Shown here piece by piece: positions 21,815 through 42,934 of a stretch of DNA of 64,000 nucleotides. Position numbers and translations under genes: made by a program. The notes below the pieces were generated by a model, which was not told the DNA's origin, ran no database searches, and saw only the letters and a program-made list of their open reading frames with translations. Numbering within the stretch: position 1 is the first letter of the stretch; each line of letters opens with the position of its first letter. Source of the DNA: Cellulomonas sp. (GTDB lineage: Bacteria > Actinomycetota > Actinomycetes > Actinomycetales > Cellulomonadaceae); the NCBI RefSeq assembly GCF_015234515.1, contig NZ_JADGMY010000023.1, positions 267,882 through 331,881 on the forward strand, read 5' to 3'.

Positions 21815-21970
21815 CACCCGTTTGGGTCCCGGCCCACCCGGGCCTAGCCTCGCGAAGGCAGGTCCCGGTGGGAGTCGTCGTCCCGCAGCGGACGCGCTCG
21901 AGGGTGGCTGTCGGTGGGTCCCGGTAGAACACGTGTTCTACGGGTGTGAACGAGCAGGAGTAGGTGACAG

Positions 21971-24900: not shown

Positions 24901-25588
24901 GCTGCTGAGATTCGGCATCTCCACCCGGATCCGAAGGACGCAGAAGACCGGGTACCGCGACGGCTGGACGCTCGACATCTCCGGTGTCGACGACCAGCGC
25001 CGCTTTCTCCAGGAGATCGGTGTCCACGGCGCACGCGGCGTGAACGCCGAGCGTCTGCTCGAGATCGTCCGTGACACCCAGGCGAACACGAACGTCGACA
25101 CGATCCCACGTCAGGTCTGGGACGACGTCCGCGATCTCCTCGTGGAACGAGGGATGACGCACCGGGAGTTCGCTTCGGCGCTCGGTACGCAGTTCTGCGG
25201 CTCGACGATGTGGGAGCACGCGCCCTCGCGCCAGCGGCTGGGACGCATCGCGGAGGTCCTCGACGCCCAGGAGCTCGAGATCATGGCAGTGAACGACCTG
25301 CTGTGGGACGAGGTCGTGGAGATCGATCCGATCGGTGAGCGCCCGGTATTCGATGCGACCGTCGTGGGCACCCACAACTTCATCGCCAACGGGATCGCGG
25401 TCCACAACAGCATCGAGCAGGACGCGGACATGGTCATCCTGCTGCACCGCGAAGACGCGTACGAGAAGGAGTCCCCGCGTGCGGGAGAGGCGGATCTGAT
25501 CGTCGCCAAGCACCGTAACGGGCCCACCGACACGATCACCGTGGCGTTCCAGGGTCACTACTCGCGGTTCGTGGATATGCAGATGTAG
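21971..25588 (+). CDS. dnaB: Replicative DNA helicase DnaB with two inteins (about 459 aa after splicing)
   Basis: PPQDLEAERSVLG; Walker A ARPAIGK|ST; FSLEMS; VIDYLQLM; SQLNR; DLRESG|SIEQDAD. Confidence 0.97.
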   Translation: MTIEDLEYGAPPDSGRSSGGGFDRTPPQDLEAERSVLGGMMISKDAIADVIEQIKGTDFYRPAHEAIYDSILDLYGRGEPADAITVADELTKRGEMGRIGGAAYLHTLIAGVPTAANAGFYARIVRERAILRKLVEAGTRIVQLGYATDGGDVDELVNNAQAEVYAVTERRASEDYLPLSEVIGGTVDEIEAAGHRGEGMVGVPTGFSDLDRLTNGLHPGQMIVLAARPAIGKALALDTPLPTPTGWTTMGEVQVGDLLLAADGTVTRVVAATDVMVDRPCYRVTFDDGSTIVADAQHQWVTRTRAERRIDADGAVRTTEALAATVRCATADARANHSVATAAPLSLPERDLLVDPYLLGAWLGDGHSASARFTSADPEIAMRIEGRGYEVRAVSAVLASLGLFDNKHIPAKYLRASEAQRRDLLAGLLDTDGTVNPTGSVQFAVTDERLARDVRELVHSLGYRTGWSVKPVRGRSLASSTCFTITFTTDDDVFALERKKLVHKERRRRSTPRLHQRFVVSVEPVASVPVRCVEISHPTHLYLAGESMIPTHNSTLGIDIVRSSAIKHNMAAVVFSLEMSRNEITMRLLSAEARVHLQKLRTGAMGEDDWAKIAATMGRISEAPLFIDDSPNMSLMEIRAKCRRLKQRHDLKLVVIDYLQLMTSGKRVESRQQEVSEFSRALKLLAKEIEVPVIAISQLNRGPEQRTDKKPQMSDLRESGCLTEDTRVLRADTGAEVTLGEMYALGHTDVPIWALDDRLQYVRRHLTHVFPTGVKPVYRLRLASGKEVTATANHPFLTYEGWTPLGELAAGSRVGVPRHVPGPERSQEWDDRKVVMLAHLIGDGSFVKRQPLRYASVDEANLAAVSEAATAFGITPIRDDYAAARVTTLRLPAPYRLARGKRNPVAEWLDEFGLFGARSHEKFVPTAVFHLPKAQISLFIRHIWATDGSVTVNANGRSGRVYYASTSRRLVDDLSRLLLRFGISTRIRRTQKTGYRDGWTLDISGVDDQRRFLQEIGVHGARGVNAERLLEIVRDTQANTNVDTIPRQVWDDVRDLLVERGMTHREFASALGTQFCGSTMWEHAPSRQRLGRIAEVLDAQELEIMAVNDLLWDEVVEIDPIGERPVFDATVVGTHNFIANGIAVHNSIEQDADMVILLHREDAYEKESPRAGEADLIVAKHRNGPTDTITVAFQGHYSRFVDMQM
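22670..23629 (+). mobile_element. DnaB intein 1 (320 aa, Ala-initiated class 3, LAGLIDADG-type endonuclease)
   Basis: Starts ALALDTPLPTPTGW inside the P-loop; QHQW, VRCV and PTHN (W-C-T triplet); LGAWLGDG and LAGLLDTDG; ends HN before Ser. Confidence 0.92.
24131..25408 (+). mobile_element. DnaB intein 2 (426 aa, class 1, LAGLIDADG-type endonuclease)
   Basis: Starts CLTEDT after DLRESG; ATANHPF block B; LIGDG and IWATDG; ends VHN before SIEQDAD. Confidence 0.93.
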
Positions 25589-26821: not shown

Positions 26822-27040
26822 TGCGCGACGCGGGCCGGGCCGCGGTGTTGGGCCAAATGGAGGAGAATCCGACGTTCCGCCTACATCGGAGTGTCGTTCT
26901 GGGATGCTTCGCAGCGTTGCGCGCTGAGTGCAACTGTCGACAAGAGATCCGGGCGCTCGTCGGTGGAAGAGACCTTTCGCTGCGTTCGGGGTGGATCGTT
27001 CTTGGGCTGACGTCTGCCGCAACAACGCTTGGAGTGCTTC

Positions 27041-30000
27041 ATGCTGGTCGGTCTTGCCCGTCGCCTCGCGACAGTCGTCCTGGTGACGATCGTGTTGCTG
27101 GTGGACATGCCTGCTGCGACCGGTGCGCCACAAGCGGCCGTTGGCGCTGTCGGCCCCATCTCGAGCGGCCAGCTTGCCGCGTCACTAGCCGGCTCCGGCG
27201 CAGCACTCCAGAGTGCGGGCGTCAGGGCCGCTGGCCCCGTCCGCATGGCTGCCTATCCGGGTCACGTCGTCGGACCAGAGGGGGATGAGTGGGGATTCAG
27301 CATCGGCGAGTCGACCCTGGCGTGCTCCACGGTGTCCTACTCGCTTCGGCTCAACGCCTGGGGCTCGCAGTACGGGGGGTACTGCGGAACCTTCGCCACG
27401 GTCGGTGGTGTCACATACGGGCAGGCGGGGAACGCGTACCCAGCCCTGCCGACGTACACGCCGGTCTCTCAGACCGCGACCGGAAACGAGATCCGGACGG
27501 TCGTTGATGTCGGCATCAGCGGTATTCGGATCACCCAGACCGACAGGTACAACCCTGCACGTGACGGCTGGATCAGCGACGTACGGGTCGACAACCTCGG
27601 AGCCACAGAGCAGCAGGTGTCCGTGCGACGTAGCGCCACGAGGTGCAACCCCTGGTCCGGTGTGAACCTGGTCGAGCGGTACTTCGACGCCGTCAAGGGC
27701 GTGGCGGCGTGCAAGAACGGGCTGAACACCGTCACCTTCGTCCGGCGTAGCAGCGAGATGTTCCGCGACGGCACCGGGAACATGTGGGGTGAGGGGAGCG
27801 AGGAGTTGCTCTCGCCCGGGCAGTCGTTCACCTTCTCGGGAGAGATCGTTTGGCGCAAGAACGGAACGATCCCGACCCCGAGCGCTGCGGTGGTACTGCC
27901 TGACGCGCAGATCGCTGGTGAGCCGTCCGCGTGCATGTCCAACAGCGCCTCGATGCTCCGCGAGGACCCGGTCAACACCGCGACCGGGCACCTGGTCGAG
28001 TCCGCCACCGACGTTCAGGTCGGTAGTGCCTCGATGCCGCTGCGGCTGCGGCGCTCGTACGACTCGGGACGCACCGCCACGAGTGCCTTCGGGCCGAGCT
28101 GGACGTATGAGTTCGGCGCCTTCCTGACACGGGATGCCGCCACCGGCCGAGCCGTCGTCGACACCGGCGCGGGCAACCTCGTCGGGTTCACCAAGCAGCC
28201 CGACGGCTCCTACCTGTCCGATCCTGCCGTCACCTCCGAGCTCAGCGAGACTGCCGACGGCTACCGGCTGCGAATGGACTGCTCCGGGGTGAGCATGACC
28301 TTCGACGCCAGTGGCGGCTTGACGGGGATCGTCGGTGACGACAGCGGGTATGAGCTGTCACTGACCAGGGATGCTGCTGGGCGTTTGGCAACCCTGACGA
28401 ACACCGACGGCCAGACGTTGACCTTCACCCACTCCGCAGACCTGTTGACGCAGGTCCGCCTCGCCGACGGTCGGCACGTCGACTACGCCTACACCGGCGG
28501 CCGGCTGACTTCTGTGACCACACTCGACGGCTCGGTCGTGACCTACGCCTACGACTCGCAGGGGCACCTGACCGCGAAGTCCGCGGGGGACCGGACCATC
28601 ACCACTGCGTACGACCCGGCGACCGGGCGGGTGGTCAGCCAGACCGACGGCGTGGGCGCCACGACCACCTTCGCGTGGGACGAGGCGACCCAGACCGCCA
28701 CGACGACGTTCCCCGGTGGCGGGATCGCGACGGACGTCTATGCCGGGAACCTCCTGGCCCGTACGAGTGACGCCACCGGGAACCTCACGCAGTACGAGTA
28801 CGACTCCGACGGGCAGATCTCGGCAGTGATCGACCCACTGGGGCGCTACACGACGCTCCGCCACGATGCGCGCGGGCTGCTGCTGGAGCGCATCGGTCCT
28901 GCACCGCAGGCCTACCGCGAGGCATGGACCTATGACGACGCCGGGCGAGTGCTGACTGAGACCGACCGGAACAACGAGGTCACGACCTACACCTACAACC
29001 CCGACGGGCTGGTCGAGAAGGTCACTGATCCCCTGGGACGGGTCACGTCCTACACCTACGTCAACGGGCGGGTCGCGAGCGTCACCGAGCCCCGCGGCAA
29101 CCTCTCGGGCGCCGTCCGCAGCGACTTCACCACGACGTACACCTACGACACCCGCGGTCACCCGCACTCCGCCACCGACCCCCTCGGCCGCACTGTCACG
29201 ACCGTGCACGACGACGCCGGGAACCTCGTCTCGGCGACCGACGCCGCCGGAGCCACGACGACCTTCACCTACGACGAGTCCGGGCGAAGGCTGACCGTCA
29301 CCGAACCACGCGGGAACGTGACCGGTGCAGACCCGGCGCTCTACACGTCCACGAACACCTACGACGACCTGGGTCAGCTCACGTCCGTGACCGATCCGGC
29401 GGGCAACGTCGTGCGCTACCGGTACGACGCCCAGGGCCGCCTGACCTCCGCCACGGCACCCGGGAACCGGGTCACGACGTACGAGCACGACCTCGACGGG
29501 AACGTCACTGGCGTCACCGATCCCGAGGGTGCCCGCACCACCTACACCTATGACGTCGCCGGACGTCGGACGTCCATGACGACCCCGCGCGGCAACGCCC
29601 TGCCCGCAGGCTCGGACCGCACCCCCTACACCTGGAAGTACACCTACGACGGCGCCGGTCAGCTCCTCACCGAGGAGAACCCGACAACAGGCCGCACGAC
29701 GTCGACCTACGACACTTACGGCCGCACCACCGTCCGGACGGGACCGACGGGCATCTCGACGGCCTGGACGTACGACGGCACCGGCAACACCCTGACCCAG
29801 ACCACCAACCTGCCCACGGTCGACGGCGAGTTCACCGCACCGGGGGTGACCACGACCCACCAGTACGACGCCGCCGGGCAGCTCTCGGCCACGATCGACC
29901 CCCGGGGCGCGCTGTCGGGTGCGGACCCGGAGCAGTACGCCACGACCTACGCCTACGACGCCGCCGGGCACCTGCTCAAGGAGACCGACCCGCTCGGTGG

Positions 30001-32644
30001 TGCCAGGACGTACACCTACGACCGAGCCGGACAGCTCGTGAAGGTGGTCGAACCGCGCGGCAACGTCACCGGGGCCAACCCGGCGACCTACGCCACGAGC
30101 TTCGGCTACGACGCCGCCGGCCGCCAGAACCGCATCACCACACCGTCGGGAGCTATCACCACCCAGGCGTTCGACCTGTCCGGGCACTTGGTCAGCACGA
30201 CCGATCCCCGCGGCAACGTCACCGGGGTCTCCCCTCAGCAGTTCACCACCACCTACACCGTCGACCGCCTCGGGCGAGTCACGGACGTCGTCGAGCCGGG
30301 TGGTGCCGCCACGCACCTGGAGTACGACGCCGCAGGCAATATCGCGAGCCGCAAGAACGCGAACAACCGCGTCACCTCCTACACCTATGACAAGGCAGGG
30401 CGGCTGCTGACGAAGAGCTCACCCGTGGGCCAGGTCTGGGAGACCACCTACGACGCCGACGGCAATGTCGCCAGCCTCACCACCCCGATCGGCACCGCTA
30501 CCGCCGCGGTGGGGGACGGAACCATCACTTACGCCAACGACCCGGCCGGTCGCCTGACCACGATCGATTACTCCGACGCCACACCTGACGTCACGTACAC
30601 CCGCGCCCTCGACGGCTTCGTCACGGCAGCCGCCACCACCGCCGGAGCCAAGCAGACCTTCGGGCGCACCCCTGGGGGTCAGCTGTCCTCGGTGTACAGC
30701 GACGGCCAGGCAGCGGGCACCGCGGACAGCAACACCATCGGGTACCGGTACGACGCTGCCGGGTTCCTGATCGGGCGAGACGCCAAGCAGCACTCGACGG
30801 CGTACACCTACGACCGAGCGGGCCGACTCGCCAGCGCCGGAGCGGGCACGGCGGTGGTCAAGCTGGGCTACGACGCTGCCGGGAACACCACCACCCTCAC
30901 GCCACCGACCGGCAACGGGTACGTCGAGACCCGCACCTGGGACCCCGACGGGCGCCTGTCCGCGGTGACGAGCAAGCGCGGCACCGCGGTGCTGTCCTCG
31001 TTCACCCAGACCTTCGACCGCGCGTCCAACCCCGCCACGCTCACCATGGTCAGCGGCGGCACGACCACCAGAACCGCCAACACCTACGACGCCGCGGGCC
31101 GGCTCACCAAGACCTGCTACGCCGCGTCGTGCACCAACGCCACCGCCTACCTCGAGTACGCCTACGACCCGGTCGGCAACCGCCTGAGCGACAAGCGCGT
31201 CGGAGTCACCAACCCGGCCACCACCACCTACGCCTACGACGCCGCCGACCGGCTGCTGACCACCAAGGTCGGCACCACGACGACGAGCTACACCCACGAC
31301 CTCAACGGCAACCGCACCGCCGCCGGCGCGCGGACCTTCACCTACGACCTCGCCAACCGCGTCATCACCACGACCCTGTCCGGCACGACCACGACCTACC
31401 GGTACGACCCCAGCGGCAACCGCGCCTCACAGACCGTCGGCACCACCACCACCCACTTCGCCTGGGACCTGCTCGCGGGCGTCCCGCAGCTCGCCCAGGA
31501 GACCGACAACGCCGGCGCTCCCCTGCGCAGCTACACCCACACCCCTGACGGTGACCCGCTCACGCTCACCACACCGCAGGCCACCTCGTACTACCACCAC
31601 GACCAGCTCGGCGGCGTCGCGAACGTCACCAGTGGCACCGGTGCCACCCAGCACACCTACACCTACGAGCCCTTCGGAGCCCAGCGCACCGCCACCAGCG
31701 CCAGCGGAGCACCGGTCAACCCGCTGCGGTTCACCGGTGAGTCCCTCGACGGCACCGGGCTGTACAACCTGCGCGCACGCCTCTACGACCCCACCCGCGG
31801 CCAGTTCACCGCGCTCGACCCCCTCGTGGAAACCACCGCCCAGCCCTACGCCTACGCACGCAACAACCCCCTGCGCTACATCGACCCCACCGGAACCATC
31901 GACTGCGAGGTCTACAGCGACGCCTGCGTCGCAGGTTCCGCCCTCAAGGGCCTAGGGCTCGGTGTCCTCGATACCGTCAAGACGATCTTCTACCCCTGGG
32001 ACGCGATCAACGAGCACCTGCGCGTCTGCACAGCGGGTATGTACAACGGCCAGCAAGCCGAAGCCGACCTGCTCTGCCTCGACGGCATGAACCCCATCGC
32101 CGGCATCCGCGACGGCTTCACCGCCGCCTGGAGCTCCGCAGAACGCGGATGCTACGAAGACTTCGGACGACAGTTCGCCGCCCCAGTGATCGGCACCGCA
32201 CTCACCGTCGCACCCTTCGCCAAGGGCACATCAAGAGCGCCCTCGGGCAGCCGAGCCGGTGGTGGCGGTTCAGGCGCGACTACCCAGAGAGCGGAGTCAG
32301 TACTCGCGCCAGTGGCCATAGGACCCGGAGCGAGGCTGTTGGATGACGCGGCGCGCATCGAGACCCATCTCGCCCGGTTGGATCACTCGCCCGCGAACGA
32401 CGCGATGCTTGCGCGGATCCGCGCCGCCGCAGCGGCCGGCCGGCCGCTCAGCGCTGCCGACCAGAGCTTCATGAGGCACGAACTGACGGAGGCGGGTCTC
32501 ATGGACCGCGGGATGGGCTACGAGGAAGCGCATGGACTGGCGGGCCAGACGCACCCGACCTTCGGCAACTATGACCCTGAGGTCATCAAGCAGTTCCCAG
32601 AGCTGTTCAACCAGAACTGGCGCAACTATTGGGGAATCGAGTGA
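27041..32644 (+). CDS. Secreted RHS/YD-repeat polymorphic toxin
   Basis: N-terminal signal-like helix; EDPVNTATG; many YD repeats; core LRFTGE..LYNLRARLYDP..GQFTALDP..YARNNPLRYIDPTG (DPTG at 31883); distinct C-terminal tip. Confidence 0.93.
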   Translation: MLVGLARRLATVVLVTIVLLVDMPAATGAPQAAVGAVGPISSGQLAASLAGSGAALQSAGVRAAGPVRMAAYPGHVVGPEGDEWGFSIGESTLACSTVSYSLRLNAWGSQYGGYCGTFATVGGVTYGQAGNAYPALPTYTPVSQTATGNEIRTVVDVGISGIRITQTDRYNPARDGWISDVRVDNLGATEQQVSVRRSATRCNPWSGVNLVERYFDAVKGVAACKNGLNTVTFVRRSSEMFRDGTGNMWGEGSEELLSPGQSFTFSGEIVWRKNGTIPTPSAAVVLPDAQIAGEPSACMSNSASMLREDPVNTATGHLVESATDVQVGSASMPLRLRRSYDSGRTATSAFGPSWTYEFGAFLTRDAATGRAVVDTGAGNLVGFTKQPDGSYLSDPAVTSELSETADGYRLRMDCSGVSMTFDASGGLTGIVGDDSGYELSLTRDAAGRLATLTNTDGQTLTFTHSADLLTQVRLADGRHVDYAYTGGRLTSVTTLDGSVVTYAYDSQGHLTAKSAGDRTITTAYDPATGRVVSQTDGVGATTTFAWDEATQTATTTFPGGGIATDVYAGNLLARTSDATGNLTQYEYDSDGQISAVIDPLGRYTTLRHDARGLLLERIGPAPQAYREAWTYDDAGRVLTETDRNNEVTTYTYNPDGLVEKVTDPLGRVTSYTYVNGRVASVTEPRGNLSGAVRSDFTTTYTYDTRGHPHSATDPLGRTVTTVHDDAGNLVSATDAAGATTTFTYDESGRRLTVTEPRGNVTGADPALYTSTNTYDDLGQLTSVTDPAGNVVRYRYDAQGRLTSATAPGNRVTTYEHDLDGNVTGVTDPEGARTTYTYDVAGRRTSMTTPRGNALPAGSDRTPYTWKYTYDGAGQLLTEENPTTGRTTSTYDTYGRTTVRTGPTGISTAWTYDGTGNTLTQTTNLPTVDGEFTAPGVTTTHQYDAAGQLSATIDPRGALSGADPEQYATTYAYDAAGHLLKETDPLGGARTYTYDRAGQLVKVVEPRGNVTGANPATYATSFGYDAAGRQNRITTPSGAITTQAFDLSGHLVSTTDPRGNVTGVSPQQFTTTYTVDRLGRVTDVVEPGGAATHLEYDAAGNIASRKNANNRVTSYTYDKAGRLLTKSSPVGQVWETTYDADGNVASLTTPIGTATAAVGDGTITYANDPAGRLTTIDYSDATPDVTYTRALDGFVTAAATTAGAKQTFGRTPGGQLSSVYSDGQAAGTADSNTIGYRYDAAGFLIGRDAKQHSTAYTYDRAGRLASAGAGTAVVKLGYDAAGNTTTLTPPTGNGYVETRTWDPDGRLSAVTSKRGTAVLSSFTQTFDRASNPATLTMVSGGTTTRTANTYDAAGRLTKTCYAASCTNATAYLEYAYDPVGNRLSDKRVGVTNPATTTYAYDAADRLLTTKVGTTTTSYTHDLNGNRTAAGARTFTYDLANRVITTTLSGTTTTYRYDPSGNRASQTVGTTTTHFAWDLLAGVPQLAQETDNAGAPLRSYTHTPDGDPLTLTTPQATSYYHHDQLGGVANVTSGTGATQHTYTYEPFGAQRTATSASGAPVNPLRFTGESLDGTGLYNLRARLYDPTRGQFTALDPLVETTAQPYAYARNNPLRYIDPTGTIDCEVYSDACVAGSALKGLGLGVLDTVKTIFYPWDAINEHLRVCTAGMYNGQQAEADLLCLDGMNPIAGIRDGFTAAWSSAERGCYEDFGRQFAAPVIGTALTVAPFAKGTSRAPSGSRAGGGGSGATTQRAESVLAPVAIGPGARLLDDAARIETHLARLDHSPANDAMLARIRAAAAAGRPLSAADQSFMRHELTEAGLMDRGMGYEEAHGLAGQTHPTFGNYDPEVIKQFPELFNQNWRNYWGIE

Positions 32645-33165
32645 TTATTTCGGTTGGGTCTCGCCGCGCCGCGGTCGTTAGCGACGAGGAGACGGCGAGG
32701 TTCGACGCCGTGCGAATGGTGGGTGCTTCGGTTCCTAGAGTGCCCGACGAGACCTCGTTGCAAGCGGTTCGGTGTGTCGTTGAGATCCTCCGACACGGGG
32801 GTGGGCTCATGCCGCGTGCCCTGCTGGGCGGCTCCTACGCGCCGGGTAGGACCGACGGACTGGTCATCGAGGTGGGCACCTCTGGGTCGTGTGTTGATGG
32901 GATGCCGACCTGCAGGAGCGCGTTGTCACGCCCACTCGTCCCTGGTCTGCCCTCGGAGTTCGCGTCCGCGGCTGAGGACGGCCTGCTGCGAAGCGCGCTG
33001 CCACCGGGAGTCGTCGTCGTCGATCGTGCGGCGTTTGATCCGGTCGAGTCCTCGCCGCTGTCCTTCGAGCTGGCAGCGGAACTTCTCGCGGTTGCACTCG
33101 GAGCGATGTCCGCGGGCCGAGTTGTCCGAGAAGCGGTGCGTGCCGCGGTTGAGGCCTGGTCGTGA
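32641..33165 (+). CDS. Putative cognate immunity protein with EF-G domain IV-like (S5 domain 2) signature
   Basis: GTGA overlap with the toxin stop; GLPSEFASAAEDGL...AAFDPVESSPLSFELAA resembles the EF-G domain IV C-terminal half. Confidence 0.65.
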   Translation: MIISVGSRRAAVVSDEETARFDAVRMVGASVPRVPDETSLQAVRCVVEILRHGGGLMPRALLGGSYAPGRTDGLVIEVGTSGSCVDGMPTCRSALSRPLVPGLPSEFASAAEDGLLRSALPPGVVVVDRAAFDPVESSPLSFELAAELLAVALGAMSAGRVVREAVRAAVEAWS

Positions 33166-33900
33166 GGTTCGTCCCGCGCGTGTACCACCGGCCATGCTGC
33201 GCGCGACCAGCAACCTCGCCGCGCACGAACTAGAGCGCTGGCCCCGACCACCAGCCGCCACCGGCGCAGCACCCGGCCCAAGCGCACCGTGCGTCGGGTG
33301 CTGCGCTTGTGCCATCGCGTTTCTCCGGGGCGAGACAACTCAGCACGCAACTGGGCTCGCAGCATCGGTGCCGTCGGGACTGCCAGGGGTGTCGGGCGGG
33401 ACCGAAGACGGCCTGCGGGTCATCGAGTCGTTCCGTACTGTCGAGCCGATCGAGGCGGATCGCCTCCGGGCAGGGTTTCGTCGTCGGCAGCACGGCGATA
33501 GGGCTCTGCGGCGGCCGAGCGGTGATCGTCGAGCCGATCAGCCGTCCCGATGATTCGGAGCGGGACGGCTGACAGGACCTGACGATCCTGCTGCTCTCGC
33601 AGCTGCCGTTCGTGGGCGAGGGCATCGAGATGTGGAGGCTGACGGTCCGGGAGAGGGGGTGAGCCCGGTCGGCGCACCAACCGTCGTGACATCGGCTCCC
33701 TCGCAACGAGCGACCGGGCGGCGGGGCCTCCGTACTTTGACCGACGGCGGCTCCGAACGCCCTGTGGTTCAAACTAGCCCGCACGCGAGCAGTCAAGCTG
33801 TGCCGCATCTCGACACTCTGCCGCAGACAGGTACCTGTCGATGGCGTGCCACTCAGATGTCGAGATGGTGTGACCAATCGGCCTGGATGCTCTGGCTACG

Positions 33901-34321: not shown

Positions 34322-37246
34322 TCACTCCCCCCGGTGGGTCCCCGGACCGTCGTCCCGACGCTCGGCCCAGACAACGGCGGCCTCCGCCCGGGTCGCGGTG
34401 CCCGTCTTGCGGAGGATCGCCGCGACGTGGACGCCGGCGGTCCGGGGACTGATGAAGAGCCGCTGCGCGATCTGCGGGTTGGTCAGCCCCGCCGCGACGA
34501 GCTCGAGCACCTGGACCTCCCGGGCGCTCAGCGACGCGATCCCCGTGACCGCTGGCGTCCCTCGACGCACGACCGCACCCCGCAGCCCGCCCCGCGCTGC
34601 CAGTCGCTGCGCCCACCCCGCCACGACCGACGCGCCGACGCGCGGACCCAGGTCCGTGCAGCGCGACAGGGCGTCGGCAGCCGTGGCCCGGTCACCGGCC
34701 GCGAGCGCCACCTCACCCCACCGGTACAGGGCGTAGGGCGGGTACCACGCGGGCGCCGGGACCCGGTCGAGCACGGCCACGGCGTGGGCCCACGCCTCCG
34801 GCGCGAGCCGGGAGGTCGCGAGCTCCGCGTCGACCAGTGACCGCCAGACTTCCGCCACCCCGTACCCCGGCAGGTCGGCGCGAAGCAGCTCGAGGACCTC
34901 CTCGGCGCGCGGTGAGTACCGGCCGAGCCGACGCCAGGCGCCGACGGCGCGCGCCACCGTCGGCACCGCCTCGAAGCGCATCGGCTCGAACTCCGCACGC
35001 ACCGTGAGCAGCCGCGCGACCTCCGTGAGCGCTGCGTCGACCTCCGCCTCCCACCGCGCCGGCGCCTCCACCGCCCGGCGCAGGTGGAGGTCCGCCGCGA
35101 GCTGCGGCCACCGGTACGCCTCGTGCTCCTCGAGGGAAGGGTCCTCGCGCACGTGCTCAAGGAACTGCGCCGCGTGGTCCGCCGGACCGTTCCACACGTG
35201 GTGGGTGGCCTGCATCCACCAGACGAACACGCGCATCGGCAGATCGGTGACCGGCGTCGTGACGGCGAGCCGGACCGCCCGCTCGGCCTGCCCGGCGCAC
35301 ATGCACGCCCAGACCAGCCGGCTTGCGACGGCTCCGACCCACCCGCCGCCGGCGCCCGCGGCCCGGATGCCCGCCAGGGCGCGCTCGCCCGTCGCGACCG
35401 CCTCGTCGTAGCGGCCGAGATGGGTCTGGTAGCAGATGAGGTACTGCCGGGTGTGAGCGAGGTGGTGGGTCGCCTCGGTCGACCGCTCCGCCATCAGGAA
35501 GGAGTCGACCGCGGCGGGCACGTCGAGCCGATCGGCGAGCAACCTGCCGCGCACGGTCTGGCAGTAGGCGACGGTGTCACCGTCGCCCGCGGCCTGCGCG
35601 AGCGCGAGCGCCTGCTCGACCCGCGACCACGCCTCCTGCCCCGTGGTGTCCCCCACGATCACCGACAGCCCGAGGACGCGTGCGAGCAGGACCTGGTCCT
35701 CCGGCGCCGTCCGGTCTCGCAGCAGGCGTTCCGCCTCCGTGAGCAGCCCTGGGTCCGCCGGCGCTCCGCTGTTGAACCCGAACATCCGCTGCAGCCACAT
35801 CAGCCGCGCGCGTGACGACGGCTCGGCGGGCGGGCACAGCTCCAGGGCGCGCCGAGCCAGGTCGAGCCCACGCGCCGCGTCGGACACGAACTCCACGTGG
35901 ACCAGTGCGGCCTCCAGCAGCAGTCGCCACAGCGGCGAATCCGCGGCGGCCGGCGCGTCCTCGACCGACGGCCACACCTGCGCGCACGCCTCAGTCAGGT
36001 CCGCGACGCTCGCGTACGCGCCCGTCGCCGCGGCCTCGCGCAGCGCCGCCGCGTACGCCGCAAGGGCGCGCCGCGGCTCGCGCGCCCGGCGCCAGTGCAG
36101 CGCCGTCTCCGCCACGTCGGGTGACGCGTCCGCGCCGGCCCGCGCGTCCATGGCCCGCGCGAAGGCGGCGTGCAGGCGAACGCGCTCGCCCGGCAGCACG
36201 TCGTCGTACAGCGCCTCCTGGATGAGCGCGTGCCGGAACCGGTAGCGCGTGCCCTCGACGACCACGAGCTTGACGTCCGCGGCCTGGCGCAGGGACGCGT
36301 CGAGCGCCGCCTCCGTCAGGTCGACCACCTCGCGGAGCACGTCGTGCTCGACGGCACCACCGCCGACCGCCAGGACCCGCAGCACCTGCCGGGCCCGCGG
36401 GTCCAGGGGCAGGCACCGCGCGAGGATCACCTCGCGCATGGTCTCCGGCAGCGGGCCGTCCCCGACGTGCAGGAGCTCCTCGACGAAGAACGGGTTGCCG
36501 CCGCTGCGCTGGACGACGGAGTCGACGGACCGCAGAAGCCCTGCTGGCAGCAGTATCGCGGCCGCCTGCGCCCGCACGAGGTCGTCGTCCAGCGGTGCCA
36601 GCTCCACCAGCGTCGTCGCGCGGCCACGCTCGAGCTCGGCGATCGCCGGCCGTAGCGGTGGCCGCACCACCTCGTCCGAGCGCAGGGTGACCAGCATCGT
36701 CAGGTGCTCGCCGCGCAGCGACTTCGCGAGGGAGCGGAGCAGCGCGAGCGTCGCGGCGTCCGCCCAGTGCACGTCCTCGACGACGAGCACGACGTGGTGG
36801 CGCACGCTCAGGGCAGCCACCAGCACCTCGACCGCGTCGTTGACGAGTGCCGGGCGGGGCGCGTCGTCAGCAGGCCCGTGCCCCAGGTCCGGGAGCAGGG
36901 GCGCGACGGCGGCCAGCACGGCCGCCGGTGCGGCCGCGACGAACGCCTCCCGTCCCACGCCCACGAGCAGGTCGCGCAGCTGCCACCGCAGCGGGCCGAA
37001 CGGCGTCCCCGCGGAGCCCAGGTCGACGCACTGCGCGGTCGCGACCACGAGGGGTGGGCCGTCGCCTGGCGCCGTGCTGACGGCCCGCAGCGCCTCCTGG
37101 ACGAGCCGCGACTTGCCGAGGCCCGCGTCGCCGCGCACGACGACCACCCGGGGCCGCCCGGCGCGCCCGTCCGTCAGCGCGCCCACGAGCACGCCGAGCT
37201 CGGACTCCCGGCCGACCATCACCGGCGCAGACGTCGTACGCGCCAT
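34322..37246 (-). CDS. AAA-ATPase (STAND-like) LuxR-family transcriptional regulator
   Basis: VGRESEL, GDAGLGKS Walker A, VVEDVHWAD Walker B, SGGNPFFVEEL; C-terminal LSAREVQVLELVAAGLTNPQIA HTH. Confidence 0.92.
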   Translation of the reverse strand: MARTTSAPVMVGRESELGVLVGALTDGRAGRPRVVVVRGDAGLGKSRLVQEALRAVSTAPGDGPPLVVATAQCVDLGSAGTPFGPLRWQLRDLLVGVGREAFVAAAPAAVLAAVAPLLPDLGHGPADDAPRPALVNDAVEVLVAALSVRHHVVLVVEDVHWADAATLALLRSLAKSLRGEHLTMLVTLRSDEVVRPPLRPAIAELERGRATTLVELAPLDDDLVRAQAAAILLPAGLLRSVDSVVQRSGGNPFFVEELLHVGDGPLPETMREVILARCLPLDPRARQVLRVLAVGGGAVEHDVLREVVDLTEAALDASLRQAADVKLVVVEGTRYRFRHALIQEALYDDVLPGERVRLHAAFARAMDARAGADASPDVAETALHWRRAREPRRALAAYAAALREAAATGAYASVADLTEACAQVWPSVEDAPAAADSPLWRLLLEAALVHVEFVSDAARGLDLARRALELCPPAEPSSRARLMWLQRMFGFNSGAPADPGLLTEAERLLRDRTAPEDQVLLARVLGLSVIVGDTTGQEAWSRVEQALALAQAAGDGDTVAYCQTVRGRLLADRLDVPAAVDSFLMAERSTEATHHLAHTRQYLICYQTHLGRYDEAVATGERALAGIRAAGAGGGWVGAVASRLVWACMCAGQAERAVRLAVTTPVTDLPMRVFVWWMQATHHVWNGPADHAAQFLEHVREDPSLEEHEAYRWPQLAADLHLRRAVEAPARWEAEVDAALTEVARLLTVRAEFEPMRFEAVPTVARAVGAWRRLGRYSPRAEEVLELLRADLPGYGVAEVWRSLVDAELATSRLAPEAWAHAVAVLDRVPAPAWYPPYALYRWGEVALAAGDRATAADALSRCTDLGPRVGASVVAGWAQRLAARGGLRGAVVRRGTPAVTGIASLSAREVQVLELVAAGLTNPQIAQRLFISPRTAGVHVAAILRKTGTATRAEAAVVWAERRDDGPGTHRGE

Positions 37247-37457: not shown

Positions 37458-39206
37458 ATGACCGAGAACGACCCGAGGAGCGACGGCGGCACGACGCCGC
37501 ACGGCTCCGTCTTCGACGAGCACGACGTCGTCCGCGGCGAGGTGCTCGTCACGCTCACCCCCTCCGCCGCACAGGCACGGACCGCGTCCGTCCCCGTGCA
37601 CCCCGGCCCCGCAGGCGGCTCCGCCGTGCGGGCGCTGGGCATCGCCCCGCTCGACGAGGTGCTGACGGCACTCGGCGCGCACGACATCGTGCAGCTGGCG
37701 CCCGATGCCGGCGTCACGGCGACGCGCGCCCTCGACGGCGGGCGGGCACGCACGGCCTCCCCGCTGGCCCGGACCTACCGGGTGCCGACCGAGTCGGACG
37801 TCGACGAGGCCGTCGAGCAGCTGGTCGCGCTCGACGAGGTCGAGTCCGCCGAGCCGAACCGCTGGCGGGAGGCGACCCAGCTGCCCAACGATCCGCTGCT
37901 GCCGGACCAGTGGGGGCTGGCGGCGATCGACGCCCCGTCCGCCTGGGACGTCTCCACGGGATCCTCGTCGGTGGTCGTCGCCGTCGTGGACACCGGCGTC
38001 GACCTCGCCCACCCCGAGCTCGCACCGCTGCTGGTGCAGGGCTCCGACCAGGTCGACTTCTCGCGGCTCCTGCCCAAGCCGGGCTGGCGCTTCGACGGCG
38101 ACGTCACCCAGCGCGACAGCGTCCCCGCCGACGAGATCGGCCACGGCACGCACGTCGCCGGCACGATCTCCGCCCTGTCGAACAACGGCATCGGTGTCGC
38201 TGGTGTCGGGTGGCAGACGCGGATCATGCCCGTCCGCGTGCTGGGCACCATGGTCAACGTCAGCGACACGAGCGCACCGATCGGCTACACGACGGGTGTG
38301 GGGACGGCCGCGGACATCGCGGCCGGCATCACCTGGGCCACGGACCACGGCGCCCACGTCATCAACCTCAGCCTCGGCGGGGCCGTCGCCACCGCGGTCG
38401 AGCAGGCCGCGGTGGACCACGCGCTGGCCAACGACCTCGTCGTGGTCGCTGCGATGGGCAACGACGGGACGGCCGTCCCGTTCTTCCCCGCAGCGTTCCC
38501 CGGTGTCGTCGCGGTCGGGTCCGTCGGCCGCACCGAGCGCCGTTCATCGTTCTCCCAGACCGGGCCGCACATCGACCTGGTCGCACCCGGGGAGGACGTG
38601 CTCTCGACGTGGCCGGGTCAACGTGCGGCGTGGAGGAGCGGGACGTCCATGGCGGCGCCGCACGTCTCCGGCGTGGCGGCGCTCCTGCGAGCCGTCAGTC
38701 CCGGTCTGACGGCCGCGAGGGTCGCCGACGTCCTGCGGCGGACCGCGCGCCCACTGCGGGACGACCCTGCGGACCCGGTCCCGAACGACCGCTACGGCCA
38801 CGGCATCCTCGACGCAGGCGCCGCGGTGCGCGCGGTCCGGCGGCCGGTCCTCGACGAGATCATCATCACCAAGCTCCGCTCGAAGCTTCTCGTCTGGTGC
38901 CCTGCGCCCACCCTGCTGATCAAGGACTGCCCGGACCTGACGTTCCTGATCACGGTGCTGCCCCCGCGGTGCGACCTGCGGACCTCCCCGGTGATCTGCG
39001 AGAGCGAGCGCGAGATCCCCAGCCTCACCACCCCGCTGATCCGGACCATCGGCCGTCCCGACGGTCTGCGCGTGCGCTCGGGCGACGACCCGTTCGGTCT
39101 CGTCCGCAGCCACGAGGTGGCGTACGTCGCGGGGCACGCTGCGGCGATGCAGGAGGTGCGCGACGCCGTCGAGGCGTACGGCACCGACCTGTTCGAGGAG
39201 CAGTGA
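37458..39206 (+). CDS. S8 subtilisin-like serine protease, no signal peptide, with Cys/Thr-rich C-terminal extension
   Basis: Triad motifs VVDTG, HGTHVAG and GTSMAAPHV; oxyanion AMGN; all four Cys lie in the tail. Confidence 0.92.
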   Translation: MTENDPRSDGGTTPHGSVFDEHDVVRGEVLVTLTPSAAQARTASVPVHPGPAGGSAVRALGIAPLDEVLTALGAHDIVQLAPDAGVTATRALDGGRARTASPLARTYRVPTESDVDEAVEQLVALDEVESAEPNRWREATQLPNDPLLPDQWGLAAIDAPSAWDVSTGSSSVVVAVVDTGVDLAHPELAPLLVQGSDQVDFSRLLPKPGWRFDGDVTQRDSVPADEIGHGTHVAGTISALSNNGIGVAGVGWQTRIMPVRVLGTMVNVSDTSAPIGYTTGVGTAADIAAGITWATDHGAHVINLSLGGAVATAVEQAAVDHALANDLVVVAAMGNDGTAVPFFPAAFPGVVAVGSVGRTERRSSFSQTGPHIDLVAPGEDVLSTWPGQRAAWRSGTSMAAPHVSGVAALLRAVSPGLTAARVADVLRRTARPLRDDPADPVPNDRYGHGILDAGAAVRAVRRPVLDEIIITKLRSKLLVWCPAPTLLIKDCPDLTFLITVLPPRCDLRTSPVICESEREIPSLTTPLIRTIGRPDGLRVRSGDDPFGLVRSHEVAYVAGHAAAMQEVRDAVEAYGTDLFEEQ

Positions 39207-40168
39207 GCACCGCCACCCGGGAGCGCGCCGCGACGGAGGTCCACCCCTCCGTCGCGGCGTTGCGGGCCGTCGGGCTGATCGGTTCCGGGAAAGCCCCGGC
39301 CGGTGCGCCGCGCGACCTGTCCCGGGCGCACGGGGTGTGGGCCGTCACGCTGGAGGACGTCGGCGACGTCGTCGTGAAGACCGCGCCGTACACGCAGGAC
39401 GACGACGGGCCCGGGACGCTGGGGGCCGAGCTGTTCGTCCACCGCCTGGCGCTGTGGTGCGAGCCGCTGCGGCGCGTGCTGCCCACGCCGGTCGTCGTCG
39501 ACGAAGCAGCGATGGTGCTGGTCACGCACGAGGTCGTCGGCCCCGAGCCGAACGCGGCGTTCCTCGCCGATTCCGACCTCGCGCACCGGCTCGGTGAGCG
39601 GACGGGTCGGGTTCACCGAGCCACGGCAGGGCTTCCGGTACCGCCGGCCCCGCACCCGCACGTGCTTGCGGTCGTGCACGAGGGTACGGCGACGGGCGTC
39701 GCCGCCGACCTCGCCGGGCACCCGGAGGTGCTGGCGGCGGCCGACGAGCTGCGCCGACCCGCCGGGGGGTGCCTCGTGCACGGCGACCTGAAATGGTCGA
39801 ACCTCGCCGTCGGCGCGGACGGTCCGGTCGTCCTGGACTGGGAGCTCGCCGGGGGTGGCGACCCGGCGTGGGACGTCGGCAGCCTCGCCGCCGAGCACCT
39901 CGTGCGGCCCGGCGCGCGGGCCGGGCTCGGCCCGCTGCTCACCGGGTACGCGGCGGGGGCACGCCCGGCGTCCCGGGTGCTCCCGGCGTTCAGCCGTCGC
40001 GTCGCGCTCGCGGCAGGGCTGCGCGTCGCGCAGCTCGCGCTCGAGATCGCGTCGCAGGAGCTCGCGGACGTCGACGCGCTCGTCCGGGACGTCGTCGACC
40101 GCGCGGTCGGGCTGGTCCTTGACCGGGCGGCCCTGGAACGGGAGGTGTGGTCATGGCTCGCAGCGTGA
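39203..40168 (+). CDS. APH-like kinase (LanK-type split-dehydratase kinase)
   Basis: GTGA coupling; VVVK, HGDLKWSN and DWE..GGGDPAWD motifs. Confidence 0.82.
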   Translation: MSTATRERAATEVHPSVAALRAVGLIGSGKAPAGAPRDLSRAHGVWAVTLEDVGDVVVKTAPYTQDDDGPGTLGAELFVHRLALWCEPLRRVLPTPVVVDEAAMVLVTHEVVGPEPNAAFLADSDLAHRLGERTGRVHRATAGLPVPPAPHPHVLAVVHEGTATGVAADLAGHPEVLAAADELRRPAGGCLVHGDLKWSNLAVGADGPVVLDWELAGGGDPAWDVGSLAAEHLVRPGARAGLGPLLTGYAAGARPASRVLPAFSRRVALAAGLRVAQLALEIASQELADVDALVRDVVDRAVGLVLDRAALEREVWSWLAA

Positions 40169-41094
40169 GCACACAGGTCCGGCGCACCACGACGTCGCCG
40201 ACCGCGGCGCGGGTGCTGCGCGAGGTGCGGACGGCCCTCGACGTCGTCGACCTGGTCCCGGAGCACCGCGCGCTGGCCGACGTCGGCCTCGTCACCGAGC
40301 TGGCGGACGTCCTCTACGCCGCGTGGTGGGTCGCTCGCCCCACGCCCCGTGCGACGGGCCCGGGCTCGCCGGCCTCGCGCCCGGGCGTCCTCGAGGCGGC
40401 GCGGCGCAGCGTCGTCGGCACGAGCGAGCGGCTCGTGCTCGCCGTGACCGACGCGCACGTGGTGACCGTCCCGCTCCGGGGCGGTGCACCCGTCCTCGTC
40501 GACGTCGACGAGGTGGTGCGCACGTCCCGGCCCGGCAGCACGCCCGCACCGGGCGACCTGGCGCACGTCCTGGACGGCGCCTCGCACTACGAGCCCGACG
40601 GCTGGTGGTGGGTGCACTCGTCGTGCCGGGGCGAGCCGCCGGCCGCACCCGTCGACCGCTGGTACCTGCACGCCGCGGGGCTCGAGCACGCCGCCGCACT
40701 GCTGCGCGTGCTGCTGCCGGAGCTCACCGCCGCGCAGGTGCCGTTCTCGCTCAAGGCGGGCCCCGCCGAGGACCGCTACGACCGCGCCGACGCCGTGGTC
40801 GTCTACGCGCCGCGTGCCGAGACCGGCGCCCTGCGCGACGTGCTCCGCCGGGCGGCGCCCCTGGTCGCGGCACACCTGCGTCCCGTGACCCCGCCGACGA
40901 CGGATCGGGTCCTGCCCGGGGTTGCCACCGCCCAGGACCCCGGCGGCGGCCGCAGCTTCGGTCAGGTCCGGTGCGAGCAGGTCGCTCGCGTCGCCGTCGC
41001 ACGGGACCCGCAGCGCGCGTGGGACGACGCGGCGCTCGCGGCCGCGCTGGGCGAGGTCGGGGTCGACGTCGACCACCCGGGGGTGACCCGATGA
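40153..41094 (+). CDS. HopA1-like protein (LanY-type phospho-lyase)
   Basis: RWYLH...VPFSLK...YDRADAVVVY...PGVATAQDPGGGRSFGQVRC. Confidence 0.78.
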   Translation: MARSVSTQVRRTTTSPTAARVLREVRTALDVVDLVPEHRALADVGLVTELADVLYAAWWVARPTPRATGPGSPASRPGVLEAARRSVVGTSERLVLAVTDAHVVTVPLRGGAPVLVDVDEVVRTSRPGSTPAPGDLAHVLDGASHYEPDGWWWVHSSCRGEPPAAPVDRWYLHAAGLEHAAALLRVLLPELTAAQVPFSLKAGPAEDRYDRADAVVVYAPRAETGALRDVLRRAAPLVAAHLRPVTPPTTDRVLPGVATAQDPGGGRSFGQVRCEQVARVAVARDPQRAWDDAALAAALGEVGVDVDHPGVTR

Positions 41095-42296
41095 GCGCTC
41101 TCGAGCAGGCCGCGCTCATGCTGGCCGGACGGCTCGCGGACGACGCCGTCCCAGGGCCCCGCGGACCGGCCTGGTCGGGCGACCGGTTCGACTTGCAGAC
41201 AGGGGACCAGCTGGTCCGGGGACCGGTGGACGACGGCCTGCTCACGGGACGCGCCGGTGTCGCGCTCGCTCTGGCGGCCGCCGGGTCGCTCCCGGGTGCG
41301 GACCCGCGGTTGACCTCGCTCGCGGTCACGACCATGCGGCACCTCACCGACGACCGAGCGCCGGTGCGCGGTGCGGACTGGATGTCCGGCGACCTGGGCG
41401 TCGCGCGGGCCGCCTGGGCCGTCGCCGGGCTCACCGGCGCCGACGACCTGCGGGCGTCGGCGGCGCGCACCGCGGCGCGCTGCGTGAGCGCGCTGGCGCG
41501 GGGCGTCGACGTGCCTCCGCAGGCGGACCTGATCGACGGCAGAGCAGGCGCCCTCATGGCGGTGTTGGCCGCGTCGCTGCCCGACAGCGCGGAGCGTGAC
41601 CGGCGTGCTGCGGCCGAGTTGCTCGTCCGTGCGCTGCGCACGGACGCCGAGCGCGACGCGTGGGGAACGAGGTGGCCCATGGAGGTGCACTGGCCGCCGG
41701 TCGCAGGGCTCGCGCACGGCGCCGCGGGCGTCGCCCTCGCGCTGCGGGCGGCCCGCGCCTGCGGGTTCGACGACGACGGCCTGGCGGACGACGCCGCCGT
41801 CTGGGAGGACGGCTGGTACGACGCCGCGCGCGGCGGCTGGCCGGACCTGCGCGACGGCACAGGTGACGGCCCGGCGGTCGCGTGGTGCCACGGAGCGCTG
41901 GGCATCGGCATCGCCGCGGCGGTCCGCAGCCGCCTCGGCGATGACGGCGAGGTCACGTTCCGGCGCGCCGCGCGGGGCGCGTCCGCGCTGCCCGCGGTGG
42001 TCGACGGCGTCGACGGGACGCTGTGCCACGGTCGCACGGGTGTCGTCGAGCTGCACCTCACGGCGGCGCGCACGTGGCCCCGGGACGGTACGCACCTGCG
42101 TGCAGCCCGGGCCGCCGCGCGACCGCTGGCCGACGGCACGCACCCCGACGGGACGACGTGGCTCCATGGTCTGCGCGGGGGGCGCACGCCCGACCTGCTC
42201 ACGGGGACGGCCGGCGTCGTCGTGTCGCTCGTACGGTGCGTCGATCCGCTGCGCGTCCCGGAGACGACGCACCCGGGGCTTCGGGTGGACGGCTGA
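41091..42296 (+). CDS. LanC-like lanthionine cyclase (LanM C-terminal-like)
   Basis: ATGA coupling; GLAHGAAG, WPDLR, AWCHG, LCHG (zinc ligands) and LLTGTAG. Confidence 0.85.
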   Translation: MSALEQAALMLAGRLADDAVPGPRGPAWSGDRFDLQTGDQLVRGPVDDGLLTGRAGVALALAAAGSLPGADPRLTSLAVTTMRHLTDDRAPVRGADWMSGDLGVARAAWAVAGLTGADDLRASAARTAARCVSALARGVDVPPQADLIDGRAGALMAVLAASLPDSAERDRRAAAELLVRALRTDAERDAWGTRWPMEVHWPPVAGLAHGAAGVALALRAARACGFDDDGLADDAAVWEDGWYDAARGGWPDLRDGTGDGPAVAWCHGALGIGIAAAVRSRLGDDGEVTFRRAARGASALPAVVDGVDGTLCHGRTGVVELHLTAARTWPRDGTHLRAARAAARPLADGTHPDGTTWLHGLRGGRTPDLLTGTAGVVVSLVRCVDPLRVPETTHPGLRVDG

Positions 42297-42934
42297 GCCG
42301 GGACCGTCGGCCGTGTGGACGAGCCGCCCGCGTGGACGACCACGACCGTGCTTGAACGTGCGGAGGACCAGTCCCATCAGTACGGGGGCTGGTGGCGCGG
42401 CGTAGATGGGTCGCCGACGGGCCCAGTCGGCCAGTCCGAGGACCTCGTGGCGGCACTCGTGGACGTCGGAGCCTCGCCGCCGGCTGTCACAGATCGTCTC
42501 GGGGGCGGTGACCGGAGGTGTCCGAGCGCCTCGTCTCCAGGAGGACGACATGCCTTCGACCCGCACACCATGGCCCACAGCCACTGCGCCTGCCCTCGCG
42601 CTGCCGCCGCCGGCCCACCCGCGCGACCGTCGCCGAGCCGGGCACCCACTGGGCGGACCGCACACATTGATTGGTGACCAGTCGAGACCGGTAGCCGGTC
42701 AAAGTTCGACGCCCAGCCCTGGTCAGTCTGTCTTGCATCTCGACACGCGAAACAGGCGGTGGCACCAGGAGGACGATCGTGGACCTCGACCTCTGCTGTC
42801 CACGCCCGTTGTCGTCACCGTGGACCCGGTAGTCGTCTGCTGATCAGGCGCTCGAGCGTCGTCGGGGCGTTGGACACGGCGTCCACGACGGCACGCGCTG
42901 GCTGCGGACGCCGACCCGTACTGACCCCACCGGG

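Follow-up and report, generated by a model that had tools for sequence, protein, structure and literature searches.

About 20% of HopA1 proteins are encoded near LanC or fused to it (Eyles et al., 2021; PMC8153245). That survey searched for short peptides only (using RiPPER) and its co-occurrence table lumps peptidases, and we found no statement in its text or supplements that the tail of a protease serves as the substrate. In the survey of ATP-grasp enzymes by Makarova et al. (2022; PMC8939145), branches 7 and 8 are linked to peptidases and come without a detectable precursor; the authors proposed either precursors encoded at other sites or peptidases that act on other proteins of the cell. 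Walker et al. (2020) discarded as unclassified the LanC loci that lacked LanB, LanM or Pkinase, and searched for precursors of 30-120 aa. Here we analyzed a stretch of 64,000 nucleotides from Cellulomonas sp. (contig NZ_JADGMY010000023.1, positions 267,882 to 331,881), hereafter the window, in which four genes at 37458-42296 encode an S8 protease, an APH-family kinase, a HopA1-family lyase and a LanC-type cyclase. Based on sequence comparisons, this operon is likely a self-contained protein-modification module, whose substrate would be the C-terminal tail of the protease itself (approximately residues 468-549), and we assign to this reading a probability of about 0.78. Less firmly, we regard the operon as probably belonging to a family that is undescribed, spans several phyla and has at least one representative among the archaea. 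In this family an S8 protease without a signal peptide would carry in cis a repeat tail of the type known from peptides that are ribosomally synthesized and then post-translationally modified (RiPPs), and interchangeable neighboring maturases would staple it by lanthionine, thiazol(in)e or lactam/lactone chemistry.

As the G+C content of the window (~70-77%) makes raw lists of open reading frames (ORFs) noisy, genes were delimited by a frame plot of third-position GC. The plot and the translations gave four co-directional genes on the + strand:

37458..39206, + strand: S8 (subtilisin-family) protease gene, 582 aa (Pfam Peptidase_S8, 1.5e-49); in order, N-terminal leader, prodomain, catalytic domain, Cys/Ser/Thr tail (predicted to be disordered) and follower helix
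39203..40168, + strand: APH-family kinase (LanK-like), 321 aa (Pfam APH, 1.3e-12)
40153..41094, + strand: HopA1-family phospho-Ser/Thr lyase (LanY-like), 313 aa (Pfam HopA1, 1.4e-22)
41091..42296, + strand: stand-alone LanC-type cyclase, 401 aa (Pfam LANC_like, 4.4e-26), with acid and zinc site intact

The protease start codon (ATG at 37458) is preceded by a Shine-Dalgarno-like GAGAGGA, and the genes are translationally coupled through overlaps of GTGA between S8 and APH, 16 nt between APH and HopA1, and ATGA between HopA1 and LanC. An initial annotation of this DNA had described four overlapping genes of these types, and the frame plot, the translations and the Pfam matches all agree with it. 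It had also reported that a transporter, a decarboxylase and a clear stand-alone precursor were lacking; we found no transporter, no decarboxylase and no small Cys/Ser/Thr-rich ORF of coding-like composition, either beside the operon or anywhere in the 64 kb. No LanB domain was detected by Pfam in the operon or among the scanned neighboring genes of the window.

The four cysteines of the protease are confined to residues 481, 491, 505 and 514 (nt 38898-38999). Their clustering in one 34-residue stretch, already pointed out in the initial annotation, is expected for four random positions with P = 6.7e-4 in a simulation. Third-position GC stays at 0.93-0.97 throughout the tail, indicating that its reading frame is genuinely coding. 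We built an AlphaFold2 (AF2) model of the protease with a 65-sequence alignment, in which residues 468-549 have a predicted local distance difference test score (pLDDT) below 50. Two elements stand out in the tail:

38877..38999, + strand: predicted core, residues 474-514, RSKLLVWCPAPTLLIKDCPDLTFLITVLPPRCDLRTSPVIC, with four (Ser/Thr)-x4-5-Cys units
39102..39176, + strand: follower helix, residues 549-573, after a DPFG motif; the tail's only structured element in AF2 (pLDDT 78-86)

The units of the window protein are S475-C481, T485-C491, T499-C505 and T509-C514, and this order corresponds to the usual N-to-C direction of lanthionines. The three CxxxT motifs noted before (CPAPT, CPDLT and CDLRT) and the stretch of about 70 aa behind them (68 residues) are indeed present; CxxxT does not hold as the repeating unit, since the conserved register is (Ser/Thr)-x4-5-Cys. 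The follower helix is a candidate recognition or docking element; homologues, too, have the DP[FY]G motif and a helix rich in Tyr/Ala.

Periodic cysteines are common in the tails of related proteases: 115 of the 120 closest S8 homologues carry 4-24 of them in the tail, three have a tail without Cys, and two stop at the catalytic domain, with no tail in the stored sequence. Within the window's own clade (P0002-P0004), identity drops to 22-27% in the Cys/Thr region, compared to 59-61% for the catalytic domain, and still all four Cys and the Ser/Thr located 5-6 residues before each are conserved. In the pooled tails the spacing between consecutive Cys has its mode at 7-8 residues, Pro directly follows Cys in 48% of the cases, and the enrichment of Ser/Thr peaks at position -5 from Cys (48%). 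Ser/Thr at -5 or -6 was found for 71.6% of 1325 tail Cys, whereas 500 composition-preserving shuffles of the tails gave 31% on average and never more than 34%. The tails vary in sequence and in the number of repeats, and their C-termini close with conserved aromatic-acidic motifs (DPYG/DPFG), accompanied in the window's clade by the helix; variable Cys/Thr tails with a conserved follower, which the initial annotation had proposed to look for in homologues, do therefore exist. In some proteases (L007 3689-5893, L008 ~3500-5663, P0023, P0038 and P0025) the whole tail module is duplicated or triplicated, running through Cys repeats, DPYG, the Tyr/Ala helix and Cys repeats again to a final ...YDPYGQSPFQG, with lengths of up to 932 aa and 20 tail Cys.

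Loci related to that of the window, with the same gene order S8-APH-HopA1-LanC, were found in at least four phyla (Actinobacteria, Acidobacteria, Nitrospira and Cyanobacteria). Those with this order include:

Microbacterium sp. Leaf288 (and an identical metagenome contig)
Luteitalea sp. TBR-22, an acidobacterium
a Nitrospira metagenome-assembled genome (MAG), L004 10984-13302, where HopA1 and LanC are fused into a protein of 772 aa, a fusion type that PMC8153245 mentions as hypothetical
Thalassiella azotivora
Allostreptomyces psammosilenae
a further metagenome-assembled contig
an Actinomycetota MAG and Terrabacter tumescens, both found via the HopA1 protein

Homologous operons, for which the initial annotation had suggested a search, are thus present with unrelated flanks: flanking genes differ between all cassette loci, while the APH kinase lies directly 3′ of the S8 gene in 11/11 other loci bearing the kinase/lyase/LanC set. 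An all-against-all comparison of the ORFs within 3 kb of eleven cassettes revealed a single conserved extra gene, described below. As a negative control, 80 ordinary metagenome S8 loci showed neither the cassette, nor a periodic Cys tail, nor such neighbors. The scan of metagenomes that returned these 80 subtilases used the alignment of residues 126-200, at the junction of prodomain and catalytic domain, and was swamped by the generic S8 Asp-box pattern. A library search with the N-terminal 143 residues gave 20 matches, which do not amount to an estimate of family size. Searches from the lyase were less productive. The word-indexed homologue search with the HopA1-like protein, whose sequence is low in complexity, returned two matches only; a seven-sequence HopA1 alignment contained no stretch conserved enough for a locus scan, and a four-sequence alignment led to three loci in genome contigs, one of them a remnant without protease. 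This remnant (L009 7001-9280) has neither protease nor kinase and consists of a 5′-truncated HopA1 gene, LanC and a small prodomain-like gene next to clpC; it may reflect either decay of the cassette or an assembly join in the MAG. In two unrelated loci a gene for a PIG-L family deacetylase is found directly upstream of the protease gene (L003 7057-7857, - strand; L005 7009-7752, + strand); this family includes enzymes of low-molecular-weight thiol synthesis.

A search that started from one homologue, P0093, whose Cys/Pro tail has practically no Ser/Thr and which is followed by a gene for a 624-aa YcaO protein, showed that the same S8 clade (50-65% identity in the aligned part) includes at least four tail types, with these maturase genes directly downstream:

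Cys + Ser/Thr repeats (the window and eight other distinct loci): APH kinase, HopA1 lyase, LanC
Cys-Pro tail without Ser/Thr (L091; L093): YcaO; YcaO and a nitroreductase-family enzyme
(L/F)KFxDD Lys/Asp repeats (L094, a 2-Mb bacterial contig; L095, Methanosarcina): MvdD-type ATP-grasp
Thr/Pro tail without Cys (L005; L096, a Cyanobium MAG): APH kinase, HopA1 lyase, LanC

Across the protease clade, tail composition co-varies with the type of the neighboring maturase. In 15/15 inspected loci of the clade a RiPP-type maturase gene follows the protease gene, and the tail is enriched in the residues that this maturase would need; the pairing of ATP-grasp with Lys/Asp tails was predicted from composition before it was looked up. 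The Cys-Pro tails are of the types CFPCFPPPPPP and CRPCLPPPPC (L091 6001-9789 and L093 6001-10872, the latter protein named as from Roseobacter sinensis) and are candidate sites of thiazol(in)e or thioamide formation within a protein. In the Lys/Asp loci (L094 6001-8843; L095 6001-8961 of Methanosarcina sp. MTP4, an archaeon) the proteins also share a conserved PFVLATPHHS motif and a helical end, and the ATP-grasp belongs to PF21068. The Thr/Pro tails (L096 6001-11162, L005 8001-13010) consist of repeats such as PTFPTRPT, without Cys, and might end as poly-dehydrobutyrine or phospho-Thr tracts. The LanC of the Cyanobium locus L096 lacks all three catalytic motifs, with GLTGG, LSGG and LATG in place of GLAHG, WCHG and LCHG.

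The three enzymes of the window operon have intact catalytic motifs. In the kinase, the motifs HGDLKWSN (HxDxxxxN) and DWE are present, and judged by its profile matches it is a distant relative of LxmK. In the lyase, R169, K201, R211 and Y218 do not vary among seven cassette homologues, which come from four phyla, and their spacing of 32/10/7 is that of R187/K219/R229/Y236 in CaoY. Mutagenesis of CaoY showed that R187 and K219 are essential and that R229 matters for efficiency, and Y236 is the equivalent of Tyr158 of SpvC (PMC9486802). Aligned with the LicM2 cyclase domain, the cyclase has GLAHG, WCHG and LCHG at the positions of the acid and zinc-ligand motifs, which bears out the intact WCHG/LCHG claimed before, and the motifs are intact in 7/7 LanC proteins encoded beside Cys + Ser/Thr tails.

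The body of the protease comprises two domains, both modeled with confidence by AF2:

37515..37871, + strand: prodomain-like region, residues ~20-138 (weak Pfam matches to Fervidolysin_NPro-like and Peptidase_S8_N; confident beta-alpha fold in AF2)
37878..38843, + strand: S8 catalytic domain, residues ~141-462 (Pfam Peptidase_S8 over residues 170-449; pLDDT mostly >90; 59-61% identity to the closest homologues)

The closest relatives of the protease are ~50% identical. The catalytic residues D178, H229, N335 (oxyanion) and S397 follow the subtilisin order and are invariant or nearly so in the family alignment of 65 relatives. The N-terminus of the 582-aa protein is hydrophilic, with a maximal 19-residue hydropathy of 1.57 versus the line of 1.9 that we used, in agreement with the earlier statement that it lacks a signal peptide; a signal-like hydrophobic stretch was found in 0/110 N-termini of the family. 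Among NCBIfam models the catalytic domain matched best the mycosin of type VII secretion systems (T7SS), at 210.8 bits versus a cut-off of 278.75. We rejected a role in mycosin/ESX secretion, given the score below the cut-off, the lack of a membrane anchor and of a signal peptide, and the occurrence of the family in phyla that we take to be devoid of ESX systems. PADLOC gave no link to known defense systems apart from a generic subtilase model.

The single conserved extra gene of the cassettes encodes a ~76-aa protein without conserved Cys, and is usually convergent and located directly after LanC. The small protein matches the fervidolysin-type S8 prodomain PF22148 (24.8 bits versus a cut-off of 21), and a profile of it matches the protease's own prodomain weakly (E 0.003). 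It accompanies nearly every locus of the protease clade, whichever the maturase:

minus strand: L001 13105-13413, L003 13162-13389, L004 13313-13540, L006 14616-14903, L008 9330-9557
further loci: L007 10050-10280 (+ strand), L090 ~11607-11855 (- strand), L092 ~11556-11777 (- strand)
upstream of the protease: L091 5523-5786, L093 5581-5862, L094 5680-5931, L095 5700-5972, L096 3158-3406

In the YcaO and ATP-grasp loci it directly precedes the protease gene, and in the Cyanobium locus it lies ~2.6 kb upstream of it. We considered this gene as the missing precursor and rejected it because of the match to the S8 prodomain and the lack of a conserved Cys. A separate precursor conserved beside such operons, which according to the initial annotation would refute its reading, was accordingly not found, the prodomain-like gene being the only conserved addition. 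Its sequence suggests that the small protein is possibly a stand-alone, trans-acting prodomain-like partner of the protease, an inhibitor or a chaperone. No profile match to this gene was found anywhere in the window, where its position in relatives is taken by the following stretch:

42297..42934, no strand: weak-coding stretch of 638 nt after LanC, of lower G+C, as seen in the frame plot

Downstream of LanC we detected neither a terminator-like nor a sigma-70-like site, and a deletion or replacement of the small gene at 42297-42934 is possible. With four predicted rings and without the small gene, the window operon appears from its sequence to be a somewhat reduced member of the family.

How the module would work can be outlined from homology to characterized enzymes. 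The APH-type kinase would phosphorylate Ser475, Thr485, Thr499 and Thr509 (or Ser510), the HopA1-type lyase would eliminate the phosphate to leave dehydroalanine or dehydrobutyrine, and the zinc-dependent LanC would add Cys481, Cys491, Cys505 and Cys514 to the dehydro residues. The product would be a tail with as many as four (methyl)lanthionine rings, each of 6-7 residues, in succession and without overlap; non-overlapping rings recall class IV lanthipeptide products. In recognition by the enzymes, the part of leader or follower would fall to the protease body and/or the follower helix (549-573). The substrate put forward in the initial annotation, the protease's own tail, is strongly favored by comparison on four counts: the conservation of the cassette, the register of the tail, the co-variation of tail and maturase, and the lack of a conserved precursor.

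Several observations weigh against this reading. The match of the kinase to the NCBIfam LxmK equivalog model is weak (43 bits versus a cut-off of 315), and no RiPP recognition element or similar element was identified in the enzymes. The window tail has merely four Cys and, as the small prodomain-like gene is missing too, the window copy could be atypical. The low AF2 confidence is no proof that the tail is disordered. C-x3-T pairings, or addition of Cys to other dehydro residues, are chemically equally allowed. At the Thr-only tails the kinase/lyase pair is retained despite the absence of tail Cys, and the LanC of L005 ends at the contig edge after its first motif, which is intact. The sample of genomic contexts is small, 15 distinct loci of the S8 clade, and the last five of them were picked by tail type and hence not blind.

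If the tail is indeed the substrate, the next consideration is its fate. By a modest margin we favor a tail that remains attached to this protease without a signal peptide, either as a cross-linked appendage or stalk resistant to proteases or as a tethered regulator, because no exporter or immunity gene is conserved, because the C-terminal end after the repeats is conserved, and because three unrelated cross-linking chemistries interchange on the same scaffold. Such an interchange suggests a generic property, for example a rigid tail or one that resists the protease attached to it, more than a particular bioactivity. Excision is the alternative that we take most seriously, less probable in our view but realistic. 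The tail would then be a true RiPP precursor and the protease domain a giant leader with a built-in peptidase, which excises a ~40-residue peptide of four rings as a free natural product, or single rings in relatives with many repeats. A 41-residue core with four non-overlapping rings is indeed of typical lanthipeptide size, the catalytic residues of the protease are intact, the repeat tails of relatives resemble multi-core precursors, and Nif11/NHLP precursors are a precedent for a single leader family that serves several maturase classes (PMC4603692). However, an exporter, an immunity gene and a conserved cleavage motif are absent beside the cassette in 15/15 loci, and the protein has no signal peptide. 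The conserved aromatic/acidic C-terminus after the repeats suggests a function for the intact tail, and the conservation of a separate prodomain-like protein, which may be an inhibitor, is easier to reconcile with control of the protease than with production of a peptide.

The other alternatives detach the tail from the three enzymes, and both seem to us highly improbable. S8 proteases are the usual leader peptidases of class I and of some class III systems (PMC10885120), and for precursor-less ATP-grasp loci it was proposed that the precursors are encoded elsewhere in the genome (PMC8939145), so that the protease could be merely a leader peptidase for a short peptide from another locus. This would leave unexplained why tail composition tracks the enzyme class over four chemistries, why Ser/Thr precede the tail Cys in a fixed register, and why a cassette of four to five genes is conserved across phyla without a short Cys-containing ORF; there is also no candidate short precursor in the 64 kb. 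Similarly improbable, in our view, is that the trio acts on other proteins or on small thiols, as eukaryotic LanCL does with glutathione, with the tail being a Cys repeat of structural function, through metal binding or disulfides. LanC relatives such as LanCL can add low-molecular-weight thiols, Thr-only tails do coexist with a LanC gene, and the PIG-L family deacetylase gene beside the cassette in two loci would be in line with this view. Yet the only complete LanC beside a Cys-free tail has lost its catalytic motifs, arguing that LanC chemistry is tied to tail Cys, disulfides are unlikely in the reducing cytoplasm for a protein without a signal peptide, and the replacement of the trio by YcaO or ATP-grasp on this scaffold suggests that the tail is what all these enzymes target.

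The remainder of the window contains genes of other kinds. Upstream of the operon lies a divergent regulator gene:

34322..37246, - strand: LAL-type regulator (AAA_16 and LuxR/GerE, by Pfam); a neighbor only, not conserved beside the cassette elsewhere

Downstream of the 638-nt stretch are genes for a 136-aa protein (sub-threshold DUF211), a 192-aa protein without a Pfam match, an SDR and a TetR protein. Farther upstream, at 21968-25588 (+ strand), a replicative DnaB helicase gene is interrupted by an intein with a LAGLIDADG homing-endonuclease domain (ORF of 1206 aa). The gene at 27011-32644 (+ strand) encodes a protein of 1877 aa with RHS repeats (DUF6531, 11 RHS repeats, YD-shell), which is likely a polymorphic toxin; the gene lies in a stretch of lower G+C and strongly negative GC skew (-0.1 to -0.2) and is followed by two ORFs without Pfam matches (32654-33553, + strand; 33230-33877, - strand).

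If true, the proposed family would explain the precursor-less, peptidase-linked ATP-grasp loci, the HopA1-LanC loci and the unclassified LanC loci of earlier surveys, all of which confined their searches to ORFs of about 30-120 aa, and mining rules limited to short precursors (~30-120 aa) would miss the whole architecture. RiPP maturases would then act on the tail of a large, catalytically active protein, which blurs the boundary between natural-product biosynthesis and prokaryotic post-translational modification. One scaffold stapled by three chemistries would offer a natural series in which the role of macrocyclization (protease resistance, tethered inhibition or assembly) could be studied, and it could also serve the engineering of stapled protein tags. 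A 2023 review of RiPP proteases (PMC10885120) mentions no protease-borne core. Our full-text literature searches likewise retrieved no description of one, within a coverage that leaves out subscription journals, where a prior description is possible. We know of no earlier example of an enzymatically installed lanthionine in a full-length bacterial enzyme.

Among the described systems, class V lanthipeptides (CaoK/CaoY, LxmK/LxmY) and thioamitides (TvaC/TvaD) resemble the window operon in that an APH-fold kinase and a HopA1-fold lyase are encoded side by side. They differ from it in their cyclase, which is the kinase-fold LanX and not a zinc LanC, and the window has a single APH gene. The window also lacks their short leader-core precursor, their cysteine decarboxylase and their transporter, the presumed substrate being the tail of a 582-aa enzyme. 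With a zinc LanC as cyclase and without a short precursor, the window system is not class V. With class I it shares a stand-alone LanC with a His acid and a Cys-Cys-His zinc site, but not a LanB. With the class IV enzyme LanL it shares the sequence of phosphorylation, elimination and zinc-LanC cyclization, here distributed over three separate proteins, with an APH kinase in place of Pkinase and a HopA1 lyase in place of the OspF type. In function the window system thus resembles a split class IV LanL that was built from non-homologous kinase and lyase folds. We also considered a match to 'class VI lanthipeptide' and rejected it, as that name refers to an unrelated streptococcal LanKC-type enzyme.

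Outside the lanthipeptides, the ATP-grasp branches 7 and 8 of Makarova et al. look like the S8 and MvdD-type loci reported here, for which (L094 and L095) the Lys/Asp tail is the obvious substrate candidate. T7SS mycosins provide the best NCBIfam model for the catalytic domain, and the window protease lacks their signal peptide and C-terminal membrane anchor. Nif11/NHLP leaders (PMC4603692) likewise combine one constant N-terminal part with varied cores and maturase classes, but there the leader is a non-enzymatic segment of ~70-100 aa, whereas here it would be a prodomain and an active-looking protease of ~465 aa. In borosins of the OphMA type, as in the architecture proposed here, a RiPP core is located at the C-terminus of a full-size enzyme; the fused enzyme is there an autocatalytic modifier, and here a protease that is served by separate maturases.

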